Under the pieces are notes generated by a model. That model was not told the DNA's origin and did not search any database. It saw nothing but the letters and a program-made list of their open reading frames with translations. Positions 2,446 through 25,916 of a DNA stretch of 51,548 nucleotides are shown here, one piece after another. Numbering within the stretch: position 1 is the stretch's first letter; each line of letters opens with the position of its first letter. Source of the stretch: Escherichia phage SKA49; sequence record NC_079180.1; one strand, written 5' to 3'. Made by a program: the position numbers and the translations under genes.

Positions 2446-2453
2446 GAGAAACA

Positions 2454-2497
2454 GGGCTGTCATCGAAAGGTGATGGCCCTTTCTTTATTCTTTATTA
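2454..2497 (+). terminator. intrinsic terminator after RNAP gene
   Basis: Hairpin GGGCTGTCAT-CGAAAG-GTGATGGCCC (with G-T pairs) followed by TTTCTTTATTCTTTATT. Confidence 0.55.
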
Positions 2498-2525
2498 ATT
2501 AAATCCTTTAATTCCCAATATTCAA

Positions 2526-3300
2526 GCAATATTGCTGCATGTAATATTGTTTCAATATTCGACATTAGTTGGATGTGAAGTAACAGAATACGGAGAAGTA
2601 TTCCGCATGTCATGTTGAATCATTCTAGAAACATTCAGCATGTCAGCTTTGAGTTACAGCGTTGTAATGATGTGGCAATCATTGAACTCCCTGGGAAGGC
2701 CACCTACAGTTCCAGCAACCATGACTTAGAGTAGGAATATCTATCCGAAACTTGGACTTCATTGTAGTTTGGTGTGCTTCATCGTGAGAAAGGTAGCGAC
2801 AACTTTCATAAGCAAATAGCATGACTCATTCCAGACAAACTTGGAACAGCTCATGTAGTACCAGCATGTTCAATTGCGACAATATTGCTCCATCTCCTAT
2901 TATAAAGGCCCACCCACAAGCCGGGAGATAACTTTGGTAATATTGGAACTTTTGGACATGCTTCTTTCTTTCAATCAGAATTCGAAAGAAGAGAAGAGTC
3001 GGAGCAAAGCCTCTCGTTTACACGCAGAAGCCGCCCCGATTTTGAGCAACAAATATTGTGACAATATTGTCGCAGTATGGCATGTAAATATTGCTACAAA
3101 TTGGCATGTTAGAATGTGGCAGAATTGTTAGAGGACTAATCACCTCGAAGATACAATCGTCTGCCAATCTGGCATGTTAATTTTGTAACAGTATTTGTGC
3201 CAATTTCGCATGTAGTATTTAACCCAATATTCTTGCAACCCGCATGAATACTGGCTTTCAGCCAAGCGAAGGCTTTATCATCGCATGTAATATTGTGACA
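2526..3300. repeat. cluster of AT-rich palindromic motifs (CAATATTG, GACAATATTGTC) and GCATGTAATATTG-like repeats
   Basis: CAATATTG or near copies at about 2527, 2545, 2877, 3049, 3058, 3087, 3294, 3302; (G/C)GCATGT(A/T)A-TATT at about 2536, 3080, 3102, 3169, 3205, 3282. Confidence 0.5.
2562..2580 (+). promoter_or_regulatory. phage promoter-like motif ACATTAGTTGGATGTGAAG
   Basis: Conserved about 19-bp motif in an intergenic position, one of eight copies. Confidence 0.55.
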
Positions 3301-3508
3301 ATATTGGGATAAAACCCTTTATTTAAATCATTTAGTTTATTAATTAAATGGTCGGTTTTCTGTACATAGGTATTCAGCTGTTTGTGCCAAATACAAACAA
3401 GTTGGCTGCTTCTACAGAACTCCAGTGCTACAAATGTTCGTGCCAATCTGCTGCAATTTATCTCATTTGGCGGGGTAATATTGTATTAGGTTGGTACGTC
3501 ATTATTTC

Positions 3509-3529
3509 GATTAGTTGCATGTGAATAAG
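3509..3529 (+). promoter_or_regulatory. degenerate promoter-like motif GATTAGTTGCATGTGAATAAG
   Basis: Partial match to the ACATTAGTTGGATGTGAAG consensus, upstream of the early gene cluster. Confidence 0.3.
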
Positions 3530-3717
3530 ACCAAATCTCTGTAAATTCTGTGACAGATTTTAGAGAGATTATGTCTCCAAGCTAATCATTGTAGTTTTTA
3601 GACACTTTGTGTGTCACATATATAGCCTGTGAAAAACGTGTGGTATATTGCTGGATTGCGACGCGCCCACCAGACTAGGAAGTCACTGACGGCGGCACAC
3701 ACAGGAATACTATATAA

Positions 3718-3780
3718 CTCCCTACAACTTTAAGGTGGATTGAGGTAAGACAAGACCTCCACAATCGTTCTGTAGGGAGT
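3718..3780 (+). promoter_or_regulatory. 9-bp inverted repeat (CTCCCTACA ... TGTAGGGAG) with nested GTGGA/TCCAC stem, upstream of first early gene
   Basis: Perfect reverse-complement arms 3718-3726 and 3772-3780 separated by 45 nt; candidate RNA structure or processing site. Confidence 0.35.
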
Positions 3781-3804
3781 TTTCCTTTAACTTTGGAGAA
3801 TAAA

Positions 3805-4053
3805 ATGGATACTGTGATTAAAGCTGCTTGTTTCAAAGACCTGCAAGATGGTCAAATCTTCACTGTTCGTTCTGTGAAGTGGATTAAAGTAAATGAGTCA
3901 GATAAGTACAATGCTGTAAAGTTCTTTGATTCAAGCAAAGCATGTACTTTTAGCGACAATATTGTTGTCAATATTGAAGTCGAATTAATTCCTGATGACG
4001 GAGATGTTGAAGCAACTCTTCGTAACACTGCTGGATATAACGAGGGATTCTAA
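3805..4053 (+). CDS. hypothetical early protein (82 aa)
   Basis: ATG with GGAG RBS 6 nt upstream; track ORF begins at TTG 3793. Confidence 0.6.
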   Translation: MDTVIKAACFKDLQDGQIFTVRSVKWIKVNESDKYNAVKFFDSSKACTFSDNIVVNIEVELIPDDGDVEATLRNTAGYNEGF

Positions 4054-6994: not shown

Positions 6995-7013
6995 ACATTA
7001 GTTGGATATGAGG
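6995..7013 (+). promoter_or_regulatory. phage promoter-like motif ACATTAGTTGGATATGAGG
   Basis: Conserved motif about 70 nt upstream of gene 7084. Confidence 0.55.
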
Positions 7014-10033: not shown

Positions 10034-10265
10034 TTTAAATATTGCTGAACTTGAGGCTGGATTGATTGTTCACCACCAGCCTCGAAACACTTTCTATCGT
10101 ATTCTTGGGCCTACAAAGATTAAAACTCACTGCGGAAGTTGGGTGGATGGGTTTGCTTACCAAGAAGTTAAGAAGTACGGGGACCATACTTTCTTAAGTA
10201 TTGATTCTTCTACTATCTACACACGACCGAAAGAGCTATTCGACTCAGATTGGAAAACGCTATAG
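10026..10265 (+). CDS. hypothetical protein (79 aa)
   Basis: Track ORF overlapping upstream stop. Confidence 0.5.
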   Translation: MRDLNIAELEAGLIVHHQPRNTFYRILGPTKIKTHCGSWVDGFAYQEVKKYGDHTFLSIDSSTIYTRPKELFDSDWKTL

Positions 10266-10334
10266 TTCCAGGCGGGTTTCTTCGAAGTGCCAAGCGGGTT
10301 TTGTGCTCGCATTGGCCTTCGGCTTTAGTCTGAA

Positions 10335-10353
10335 ACATTAGTGGGATTTGATT
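10335..10353 (+). promoter_or_regulatory. phage promoter-like motif ACATTAGTGGGATTTGATT
   Basis: Preceded by CTGAA as in other copies; intergenic. Confidence 0.45.
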
Positions 10354-10476
10354 CTGACCACTTAGGGGAAGAAAGGCATTATACACTTATCGCCAAATGG
10401 GTGTCAAGCACTTTCTTCATTTATTTAATTTTATTCTTATTATTCTTTTTGTTTGGAATATTGGAATAATTCTGAA

Positions 10477-10495
10477 ACATTAATTGGAATTGAAG
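10477..10495 (+). promoter_or_regulatory. phage promoter-like motif ACATTAATTGGAATTGAAG
   Basis: Preceded by TCTGAA; intergenic, second copy in the same spacer. Confidence 0.45.
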
Positions 10496-11134
10496 AGACA
10501 ACATCAGATAAGAGCTTTGTAACTAGGTAGTCCGTCTGGTACCAAGACGTGTGAGAACGTTCGATTCGTTCTACAAAGCTCTTTTCGATGGAATGTTTCC
10601 ATCATATACATTTATCTTTTTAACATAGGCCAAAGGGCCGGAATACTTATTCGCAGAAAAGCTATTCACTTGTTATAGGCGATGTATTGGGATGAATTGG
10701 AACTAAATAAGCAAGCTGCTAGGGCTGAATAATTAGAGGGGTAATGCCTCATGCTTATGTTAGTCATTCGAAAATAGGTTTGTGCCACAAGCTGCTGGTG
10801 CTCTGAGGAAGTCGGACAAACAGGGCTTAGAGTGGCATAATCCGCACAAAATCGCGCCACCAGCTATGCCAAAGCAGGTGGATTGGGTGAATGTATTGGG
10901 AAGGGTTGCAAAGCCTCTGCGACACGCCTGAGCCGCAAGGCGACGACACTCATGTGATTAGCGTATCGCACCCTAACGGGAGTAACCCTTCGCCAATGCA
11001 GTTATCCAGAATTGACACAAACGGTAGGCAGTGGTCCGATTTTCGGCCTTCCTGTGCTACTCTGTGGCCTGTTTCATGGGCCAAAAGATGAGAAGAGAAG
11101 TCACAAACACTGAATCGAAAATTGGAGAGTTCCT

Positions 11135-11452
11135 ATGATTCGTAAGCATTCTGCCAAAGTTTTAACATTGAGAAATGTTGAAAGAGCTTTTAGTGATAGT
11201 GTTGAAGAAACACTACACTTCGTACTTATTGGTGGGTCATGGTATTACAATGGTACGTCTAACTTAAACCATTTGAGTAAGTCTCACAAAGATGGTTTTT
11301 GGGAATATGATATTAAATATATTCTCGAAGATAGTCCAAAGTTCAGCCTCGGTGAAATAAAAAGAAGTTTCTACCACGGCCCAAACAAGTCCATGCAAAT
11401 TGCAACACGTGAGTGGACATCAAATCAACGAGCTTATGGAGAGCAATATTAA
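11135..11452 (+). CDS. hypothetical protein (105 aa)
   Basis: GGAGAG RBS; track ORF. Confidence 0.55.
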   Translation: MIRKHSAKVLTLRNVERAFSDSVEETLHFVLIGGSWYYNGTSNLNHLSKSHKDGFWEYDIKYILEDSPKFSLGEIKRSFYHGPNKSMQIATREWTSNQRAYGEQY

Positions 11453-12465: not shown

Positions 12466-12484
12466 ACATTAGTTGGATGTGGAA
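12466..12484 (+). promoter_or_regulatory. phage promoter-like motif ACATTAGTTGGATGTGGAA
   Basis: Best consensus copy; about 75 nt upstream of the codon-optimised gene 12560. Confidence 0.6.
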
Positions 12485-12898: not shown

Positions 12899-13795
12899 GT
12901 TGCCGATGGCAAACTTGAGAGACTAAGCTAAATCGATCTGGCATGCACTGGAAGTTTCCGGTGCTGCCTTGAACCCATTCCAGAGTGAGTGGGCTTCAAT
13001 TTGTACATAATTCAAACACCAGTGCATGAGCCTTCGACGGAAGGCAATGTTGGGAAATTTGTTGTGTACAAATTGAAGTAGTTTTCTGAGTCTTACGACG
13101 GGCCTAAACTGCCTGGAGTTATTGCGACTGTTTTATTCATTTAAAATAAATGCAAATGATTCTGAAATGCGAGTTGCGGCTTAATTAAATTTAAGTCCTC
13201 TCCGTGGTCTTCCAATCCCACGTAACCAAATTTGGCGCATTGTGGCTTCGAGATGTGATTAATAAATCGGAGCAATAATTAATTTGTATTCTGCGATGCA
13301 AAGCAGGCTTAAGTCCTCCAGTGCGCGTGGGGATGTGACAGAGTACAAACTTAATTATGCAGTTGGATATTTCTAGAGGACGGACGAGCACACTGGAATG
13401 TCTTCAATTGGTTTAGTGTGAGAAGCTATGCCAATTTGAAACGTAACTCCTTGGGGAAGTGCTCCTCTGGATTTCCCTCCACGCAGGAATCTCAAGCCTG
13501 TGGCAGTGACTTCGAAGCTGCACTGCGTAACCTAATTCACCCTAAAGTGAATTGCCCTGAGCATGGAAATAAACTGCTCAAACCGATGGTATCTACAAAG
13601 GTAGATTAAATCAGGTTGCCTGTTGGTACTTGGGTTCAACACCTGCTTGCACTCGCAAAGTAGTGCCTCGTACCTGAGATGAAGTGAGTCGGGACCATCA
13701 ATCCCACGTTATGTCAAAACACAGTAGGCGACTCACGGATTCTACAAGCCTCGCAGTTCGGGAAAACCTGCGTTATCAAAACCCCCCACCTATTT

Positions 13796-13887
13796 GGACG
13801 AGTAGCTCAGAAGGTTTGCATTGTGCTCAGTCAGGTAGAGCAATCTGTTCGACAGATGTGTCGTTGGTTCGAATCCAACCTCGTCCA
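13796..13887 (+). tRNA. tRNA-like element (possible tRNA gene or pseudogene; isotype undetermined)
   Basis: Perfect 7-bp acceptor stem GGACGAG/CTCGTCC, canonical T-arm GTTGG-TTCGAAT-CCAAC, discriminator A; core about 19 nt longer than standard, with duplicated GCTCAG flanking a 20-nt insert. Confidence 0.4.
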
Positions 13888-13917
13888 CCCATTTTCAACA
13901 ATAAACATGGAGTCCTC

Positions 13918-20205: not shown

Positions 20206-20450
20206 TGGTTGTTGTATCTATATTCGACAAAGTGGACCATTTACACTTTGTCAATAAAGGCGAAGACGCACGGGAAGCTGTGCTGTCTGTAATTACCGAG
20301 AATGCTGAAACATTATTTGGAAGTGATTCTGCTACCAATTCAGTGTATCAGGCATTCATTAAAACTTTATCTGGTCCTGTCGTCAATGAGCAAGAGTTAA
20401 TCTCTTGTATGAACGACCTGGACTTCTCCCTAGTTATCACTCAACTGTAA
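20205..20450 (+). CDS. hypothetical protein (81 aa)
   Basis: ATG overlaps polymerase stop; track ORF. Confidence 0.5.
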   Translation: MVVVSIFDKVDHLHFVNKGEDAREAVLSVITENAETLFGSDSATNSVYQAFIKTLSGPVVNEQELISCMNDLDFSLVITQL

Positions 20451-25730: not shown

Positions 25731-25916
25731 ATGCGCACAATACAATGTCCTAACTGCCATTATGAAATTGCAGAAGATGATTTCATAACGCAGCAATGTC
25801 CTATCTGTGATTCATACATGCCACTAAACCGCCTGTATTTAAAGGCCGATTCTGGTTTAGGCAGCATCATTCGCATCAATCCCGTGCAAACTCAGCCATT
25901 AGTGGATTGTGATTAA
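25731..25916 (+). CDS. small zinc-ribbon protein (CPNCH...CPICD)
   Basis: Two CxxC pairs; GGAG RBS. Confidence 0.5.
   Translation: MRTIQCPNCHYEIAEDDFITQQCPICDSYMPLNRLYLKADSGLGSIIRINPVQTQPLVDCD

Follow-up and report, generated by a model that had tools for sequence, protein, structure and literature searches.

An RNA hairpin with terminator-like features, conserved ahead of the first early gene in Chaseviridae phages

The early leader of the window

The window, i.e. the whole stretch of 51,548 nucleotides from Escherichia phage SKA49 (NC_079180.1) that was analysed, is by its sequence matches a phiEcoM-GJ1-like phage of the Chaseviridae (Cleopatravirinae, Carltongylesvirus). A canonical terminator, at 2453-2480, stands behind its T7-like RNA polymerase gene (331-2445); non-coding DNA then extends over about 1.35 kb, up to a series of small early genes that begins at 3805 and for which only unknown PHROGs are matched. 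The RNA polymerase of the family is present in 107 records. The polymerase reading frame has 704 aa here and in phages Bp10 and Mangalitsa, and starts about 60 codons further in in many records; the longer form is the one that agrees with the promoter-like motif at 252-267.

The non-coding kilobase at 2446-3508 contains GCATGTAATATTGTGACAATATT-type repeats (at 2537, 2864, 3046 and 3283) and near-palindromes AATATTGTGACAATATT. In the relatives a direct terminal repeat of about 3.1-3.2 kb ends inside the equivalent of this region, some 630 nt ahead of the hairpin described below as H3. The region might contain operators, an origin or packaging signals. At 2683-2712, about 110 nt past the first promoter-like motif, lies an element of the form GAACTCCCTG-(variable hairpin)-AGTTCCAG, kept in every genus examined (at 6153 in L144, 309 in L149, 420 in L146 and 342 in L145); this element and the left arm of H3 both carry ACTCCCT.

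The motif CATTAGTTGSATGTGA is found nine times on the plus strand (252-267, 2563-2578, 3509-3524, 6996-7011, 10336-10351, 10478-10493, 12467-12482, 20311-20326 and 25897-25912) and ten times on both strands, against 1.35 copies expected over both strands. It is often preceded by CTGAAA, and the copy at 252-267 stands just upstream of the polymerase gene. That this motif is a promoter of the phage RNA polymerase seems plausible. The copy at 3509-3524 corresponds to "putative phage promoter 2" of phiEcoM-GJ1 (annotation EF460875), and the leader RNA containing H3 likely starts at this copy; we infer this start, since the ICTV profile of the family describes Chaseviridae promoters as not yet identified. 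From this motif to the first early gene the features are the following:

3509-3524, plus strand: putative promoter motif of the phage RNA polymerase, GATTAGTTGCATGTGA
3528-3576, plus strand: H1, a long hairpin at the 5' end of the leader (inverted repeat, leader folds)
3601-3615, plus strand: H2, a small hairpin GACAC-UUUGU-GUGUC (cross-genus alignment, leader folds)
3621-3715, plus strand: lineage-specific insertion of about 97 nt, with ends ambiguous by 2-3 nt and its own closed stem
3716-3726, plus strand: left arm of the H3 lower stem, AACUCCCUACA (inverted repeat, fold, covariation)
3727-3734, plus strand: 5' side of an 8x8 internal loop, ACUUUAAG (fold; nearly invariant in alignments of close relatives)
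3735-3762, plus strand: upper arm, made of GUGGA/UCCAC (5 bp), a 4-nt bulge, GGU/ACC (3 bp) and an 8-nt loop
3763-3770, plus strand: 3' side of the 8x8 internal loop, AAUCGUUC (fold, alignment)
3771-3781, plus strand: right arm of the H3 lower stem, UGUAGGGAGUU (inverted repeat, fold, covariation)
3782-3794, plus strand: U-rich linker between H3 and the Shine-Dalgarno sequence (SD), UUCCUUUAACUUU
3795-3798, plus strand: SD of the first early gene, GGAG, invariant among the aligned close relatives
3805-4053, plus strand: first early gene, 82 aa, PHROG 23678, with its ATG at 3805-3807

The first-pass annotation had pointed to perfect 9-nt arms, CTCCCTACA (3718-3726) and TGTAGGGAG (3771-3779), and to an inner stem GTGGA (3735-3739)/TCCAC (3758-3762); both are present as described. 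The arms can nevertheless be extended to 11 perfect pairs, AACTCCCTACA (3716-3726) with TGTAGGGAGTT (3771-3781). The enclosed segment, which does have its own stem, measures 44 nt and not 45, and the 11-bp stem stops 13 nt before the GGAG in the ribosome-binding site (RBS) of gene 3805. The inner stem continues beyond the 4-nt bulge through the pairing of GGU (3744-3746) with ACC (3755-3757), and in the upper arm an SD-like AAGGUGG pairs with an anti-SD-like CCUCCAC. Together with A3726, the 5' strand of the internal loop forms AACTTTAAG, a 9-mer also present in the T7 gene 10 leader. On the other side of the hairpin, the linker and the last two U of the right arm give the run GGGAG-UUUUCCUUU, and positions 3786-3794 of the linker form TTTAACTTT, which is common to the "epsilon" leader of T7 gene 10.

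The 78-nt H3 element folds at -25.4 kcal/mol (z = -3.5), and z is -2.2 when H3 is taken within a context of 111 nt. Three perfect 11-nt inverted repeats with a loop of at most 60 nt are observed in the window, for 0.85 expected in first-order Markov random sequence of the same size and composition; as about one such repeat arises by chance per window, the repeat by itself is not significant. A motif scan and a covariance model revealed no second copy of H3 in the genome. A search of Rfam with 3716-3781 gave no match, even at E values up to 10, and the whole window at the gathering threshold matched only a tRNA.

Taken from the promoter motif to the ATG, the leader RNA shows strong folding (z = -4.3, against -3.8 for GJ1), and its blocks are conserved across genera, together with a motif-to-H3 distance of about 106 nt. 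The arms of H1 are kept with an altered sequence in other genera, as judged by eye from the alignment, and H2 sits within the conserved block GRCACnnnnnTGTGTCACAT. The insertion, located between GTGTCACATA and CTCCC, is present in about half of the relatives and missing from GJ1, Mangalitsa, ST32 and 4HA13. Two other promoter candidates were considered in this interval and rejected: an extended -10-like TGGTATATT (3641-3649) of a sigma-70 promoter in the insertion is not conserved among the phages bearing the insertion; the block GGCAC...GTGTCACAT, examined by eye as a sigma-54 or T7-like promoter, is without the -12 GC and is separated from H3 by the ~97-nt insertion in half of the phages, and we treat it as the small RNA hairpin H2. 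A consensus scan from promoter motif 2 to H3 found no promoter-like site on the plus strand, the nearby site at 3588-3617 being on the minus strand.

Two other parts of the window contain hairpins. A second large non-coding region, 10265-11135, has two promoter-like motifs with a composite hairpin 16 nt after each: the hairpin 10368-10418 bears a long U-rich tail, and the hairpin 10510-10583 has 12-nt perfect arms (z = -4.3). This design matches that of the H3 leader and could correspond to small RNAs or to an origin region. About 900 nt without convincing ORFs are also found in 12900-13900. They include a very stable hairpin, 12993-13079, with z = -6.3 at -45 kcal/mol, and a call of tRNA-Leu(CAG), 97 nt long, at 13795-13891; no other Rfam match was obtained there.

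Conservation of the hairpin within and beyond the genus

A query of 141 nt found the H3 element once per genome in 45 records, all of them Chaseviridae, with an identity of 91-100% except for the TH29/TH25 records (about 86%) and 4HA13 (77%). Many matches start exactly at the base of H3 (3717) and stop at the ATG (3807). Among close relatives the pairwise identity reaches 98.8% for H1, 96.5% for the RBS segment and 93.5% for the interior of H3, against 84.0% for the insertion and 84.1% for the third codon positions of the first gene; since the insertion varies at the rate of third codon positions and the others stand above it, H1, the interior of H3 and the RBS are under purifying selection and the insertion is not. 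Some relatives possess another first gene (MDT... versus MTRFKDLEDG...) and retain the H3-RBS module. In five of these records (L126, L127, L132, L133 and L039) the joint of the exchange is the start codon, the module covering 3717-3807, which indicates modular recombination at the H3-RBS cassette.

Two records obtained in these searches deserve a comment on their labels. PP952070, Staphylococcus phage Pel53, is attributed to Staphylococcus hyicus, yet it is 81% identical over a 1-kb query and 97% over the hairpin module, and its RNA polymerase shares 93% amino-acid identity with that of E. coli Chaseviridae; in view of this identity the host label looks doubtful. PP763568, Aeromonas phage phiA050, has the RNA polymerase and the leader of the family, yet it is unclassified below Caudoviricetes.

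Close relatives gave no covariation at the consensus pairs, because their sequences are too similar. The changes at paired positions are from A-U to G·U (GJ1, L066, PYps23T), the others being substitutions in loops or bulges and indels of 1-2 nt. The eight pairs of the upper arm are invariant save the apical U-A in 4HA13 and L142 of the Sabourvirus lineage, and are thus uninformative on covariation. The lower stem is more variable on its inner side: in the TH29/TH23/TH25/MLP1 sublineage, where about 7 bp pair well, a poorly paired sequence stands in place of its inner four pairs, and in Sabourvirus an offset 4-bp helix does. This varying inner stem is flanked by the unpaired CUUUAAG and CAAUCGUU, which hardly change across some 20 distinct sequences.

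In other genera the equivalent site was recognised from its neighbours, the block GRCACnnnnnTGTGTCACAT on its 5' side and, 12-15 nt beyond it, the GGAG of the first early gene. It carries the following hairpins (left arm, apex, right arm) and tails:

IMG/VR phage L144, whose RNA polymerase is 72% identical: ACTCCCTTCA-gaaa-TGGAGGGAGT, tail TTTTGCTTATTTT
Aeromonas phage phiA050: GCTCCCTTC-atct-GGAGGGAGT, tail TTTCTTTCTG
Metagenome contig L156: GCTCCCTCT-tgtt-GGAGGGAGT, tail TTTCTTACTG
Pectobacterium phage PM1: AGCTCCTGC-tttgtt-GTGGGAGCT, tail ATTCTTTAATTTT
Proteus phage Myduc: AACTTCCTAGC-12 nt-GTTAGGGAGTT, tail GATTTAG...

The L156 variant was the one useful result of a 16-nt metagenome scan that gave mostly noise; likewise, almost all matches of a 14-nt pattern scan of IMG/VR were due to chance, six loci being real. 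The site differs in Loessnervirus (SSEM1, Y2), with GGCAC-15 nt-GTGCC and then TTTCTTAATTT.

Compared with the window, A-U has become U·G in L144 and phiA050, a U·G of phiA050 is C-G in L156, and Myduc and PM1 show several double changes in the lower stem. In an alignment of nine lineages, whose apical parts were trimmed by hand and which was aligned by the same analyst, 94.6% of the cells of the 11-bp lower stem pair, and 6 of the 11 pairs undergo double changes, though PM1 accounts for several of these, perhaps by a register shift of one pair. None of 500 shuffles paired as well, and slid controls paired at 42-61%. As G·U pairs are found in both orientations, the selected structure is that of the plus-strand RNA, not of the DNA or of the minus strand. 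The reality of H3 therefore rests on the comparison, i.e. on its fixed site in about 45 genomes and on the covariation across genera, which show that H3 is a real, conserved, cis-acting hairpin of the plus-strand RNA, the last in the series of conserved hairpins of the untranslated leader. The initial proposal of an RNA stem just upstream of the first early gene is thus supported by the G·U pairs and double changes between genera, as well as by its joint inheritance with the RBS. What the genera have in common is a GC-based stem and a U-run; the 44-nt upper arm exists in Carltongylesvirus and Sabourvirus only, being absent from L144, phiA050, L156, PM1 and Myduc, and is probably a later addition specific to this lineage.

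Possible functions of H3

The conserved core of the element, ACUCCC/GGGAGU at the base of the lower stem, abuts the U-run 12-15 nt upstream of the SD, which is the anatomy of an intrinsic terminator. A terminator-type function, which had not been considered in the first-pass annotation, fits this core best, and as our preferred, though tentative, reading we propose that H3 may be a leaky terminator or attenuator also insulating the RBS. A U-rich tail follows the stem in all eight lineages read, the first 8 nt past the stem amounting to 73% U and 12% A by manual count in these lineages; in PM1 and Myduc the tail is interrupted (UAUUC... and UUGAUUU...). The hairpins of L144, phiA050 and L156 are compact, with a stem of 9-10 bp, a tetraloop and a U-run, and a consensus scan flagged those of L144 and phiA050 as terminator-like. 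The same scan of the window did not flag H3, because its "loop" is a 44-nt segment with an 8x8 internal loop, outside the usual geometry of terminators; taking as compact a loop of about 3-8 nt on a stem of 5-14 bp, H3 of the window falls outside this range and the three others within it. The annotators of SA91KD, using TransTermHP and WebGeSTer, listed no terminator at the equivalent site, and the T7 class II terminator motif ATCTGTT, searched by eye, is absent or not conserved. The literature search found no study of transcription, transcript ends or RNase III in Chaseviridae. Against a terminator, the site between the promoter and the genes that it serves is odd, and demands leakiness or regulation; the 44-nt insert and the weakened stem of the sublineage should lower termination, and the U-runs of PM1 and Myduc are poor; moreover, a role in translation or stability accounts equally well or better for a hairpin that is inherited together with the RBS and whose distance to the SD is tight and conserved.

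Such a role, close to the translational control raised in the first-pass annotation, is the main alternative, possible if somewhat less likely in our opinion: H3 would be a boundary without terminating activity, by which the SD and the 13 nt of U-rich, epsilon-like sequence ahead of it stay unpaired, as a standby platform for S1 or the 30S subunit. After a cleavage upstream it could also form a protective 5' stem-loop, and give a strong, context-independent expression to whichever gene comes first. This would account for a hairpin-SD spacing of 12-15 nt in six of the seven lineages read (the distance is 25 nt in Myduc), for the 96.5% conservation of the RBS segment, and for the joint inheritance of hairpin, U-rich linker, GGAG and ATG while the ~97-nt insertion and the downstream gene vary; the linker in addition contains the TTTAACTTT of the T7 gene 10 leader, and such a module tolerates the 44-nt insert and the weakened inner stem, which a terminator should not. 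By contrast, it leaves unexplained why the tail adjacent to the stem is U-rich rather than A/U-rich and why the simple forms are textbook terminators; besides, neither a promoter nor a mapped processing site puts H3 at a 5' end, the nearest motif ending at 3524, 191 nt upstream, although a processing site may lie directly upstream of H3. H3 could also be a site of the T7 type for the host RNase III, proposed at the outset, whose cut would detach the leader and create a defined 5' end 15-30 nt ahead of the start codon; we consider it unlikely. Certainly a 66-nt hairpin of two helices, directly upstream of the first early SD in a phage with a T7-like polymerase and an E. coli host, matches T7 R0.3 in size and position, and cleavage of R0.3 is said, from the work of Dunn and Studier, to stimulate the translation of gene 0.3. 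On the other hand H3 is present in one copy per genome, with no similar hairpins between the early genes, and its 8x8 internal loop breaks the coaxial double-stranded RNA into 11 bp and 8 interrupted bp; the inner part of the lower stem has decayed in the TH29-type sublineage, and nearly invariant single-stranded loops suggest a recognition specific of sequence, not of shape. The homologues of L144, phiA050, L156 and PM1 have 9-10 bp, i.e. at or below the minimal length of an RNase III substrate, so that the conserved function is unlikely to be a cleavage by this enzyme.

The upper arm might have a function of its own, as an RNA operator or decoy for a phage or host factor, or for the 30S subunit, controlling termination or translation of the early operon. 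We regard this as quite improbable. The invariant unpaired CUUUAAG and CAAUCGUU beside a varying inner stem point to it, as does the presence in the arm of AACUUUAAGGUGGA, near the epsilon and SD of T7 gene 10 AACUUUAAGAAGGAGA, paired to CCUCCAC; the sequences are, however, closely related, which makes their invariance weak evidence, and several genera lack the arm while retaining the other parts of the module. Autoregulation by the product of the first gene is excluded, because this gene is exchanged between relatives. The upper arm also enters a wider proposal, again unlikely, in which 3509 to about 3790 would form a phage small RNA gene overlapping the leader of the early operon, with H3 as its terminator and a switch in the upper arm setting the ratio of small RNA to read-through. 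H1 would be the 5' hairpin of this RNA, which would also include single-stranded blocks such as the invariant anti-SD-like CUCCAA, and in the 44-nt arm an anti-SD mimic would clamp a mimic of epsilon and SD, the arm acting as a ribosome- or factor-binding switch. Finally a chance repeat, a signal at the DNA level (cruciform or protein site) or a small coding ORF are very improbable and, on the sequence comparison, essentially excluded. The chance expectation given above (about 0.85 perfect 11-nt repeats per window) speaks for the first, and for the last the computed ORFs that overlap H3 (3675-3836 on the minus strand and 3629-3733 on the plus strand; some records annotate an ORF on the minus strand here); but the G·U pairs, found in both orientations, would turn into C·A mismatches on the other strand or into destabilising G·T ones in DNA, the ORFs depend on the insertion missing from half of the relatives, and the indels of 1 and 2 nt (Bp10, DE15, ST32) break any frame. 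A leader peptide or small ORF over H3 was likewise rejected: the frames running to the TAA of the internal loop are interrupted by stops and not conserved, and in GJ1, inspected by eye, the final stop-free stretch is preceded by no start codon.

Returning to the leaky terminator or attenuator, we can propose how it would operate. The upper arm would fold first during transcription; the lower stem would then close against the U-run and release a fraction of the polymerases—the host enzyme reading in from upstream and possibly the single-subunit phage enzyme, in a manner like T7 class I termination. The product would be a stable non-coding leader RNA with H1 at its 5' end and H3 at its 3' end, about 260 nt long here and about 180 nt in GJ1, and H3 would block read-through from the long upstream non-coding region. 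The polymerases that read through would make the early mRNA, with H3 13 nt before the SD, where it would free the U-rich ribosome-loading zone of upstream pairing and could protect the RNA end. The upper arm and its invariant loops probably add a second function, for example factor binding or processing.

H3 among phage leaders and its meaning for the Chaseviridae

Several known systems resemble H3 in part. Like intrinsic or class I terminators, it has a GC-rich stem base, GGGAG, abutting a U-run on the coding strand, and T-phi of T7 consists of a two-part hairpin followed by a U-run; unlike them, H3 encloses a bulged 44-nt arm with an 8x8 internal loop, its U-run has just 4 U before CC, and its place is after a putative promoter and ahead of the genes, not at the end of an operon. 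With T7 R0.3, a composite hairpin of 68 nt ending 2 nt before the SD, H3 shares a size of about 66-68 nt, an internal loop and a place upstream of the first early SD in a phage with a single-subunit polymerase; H3 is nevertheless built as 11 bp, 8x8 loop, 5 bp, bulge and 3 bp, with a larger internal loop, and there is no sequence similarity between the two. It differs from the T7 RNase III sites in general by being single-copy, not repeated between genes, and by its sister-genus homologues, which are too short, so that the length of double-stranded RNA is not preserved. H3 can thus not be counted among the demonstrated RNase III sites.

The leader of T7 gene 10 (phi10), made of a stem-loop, the epsilon string UUAACUUUA and the SD, offers another comparison, epsilon being a translational enhancer. 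The order of hairpin, U-rich TTTAACTTT, SD and ATG is the same, and the internal loop of H3 contains a second overlapping 9-mer of that leader, AACTTTAAG. The hairpin of T7 is, by contrast, the 5' end of the primary transcript, directly behind the promoter, and H3 is about 190 nt past the nearest motif; a 5'-terminal stem-loop of the phi10 or ompA type is not what we find, as no promoter motif adjoins H3. The epsilon-like string is in addition restricted to Carltongylesvirus. T4-type phages possess mobile regulatory cassettes, the PeSLs (promoter-early stem-loops). Like them H3 is a sharp-edged stem-loop module flanking exchangeable early genes; the order is different, hairpin then RBS instead of terminator then promoter, and H3 by itself cannot drive shuffling within the genome since there is one copy per genome. 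We found no paper on the element, which is in no Rfam family. In kind, H3 goes with the leader terminators or attenuators and with the hairpin-RBS leaders of T7-like phages.

These observations leave general principles unchanged: hairpins in leaders, attenuators and RNase III sites before the early genes of phages are well known. The Chaseviridae are, on the other hand, myoviruses with a T7-like RNA polymerase gene, whose transcription is essentially uncharted. A leader is now defined for them, with a promoter motif, H1, H2, the terminator-like H3 and a U-rich RBS, and it is common to at least six genus-level lineages. It includes a compact cassette of hairpin and RBS that is portable between genes, as natural recombination shows, and it provides concrete and cheap targets for end mapping and in vitro termination.
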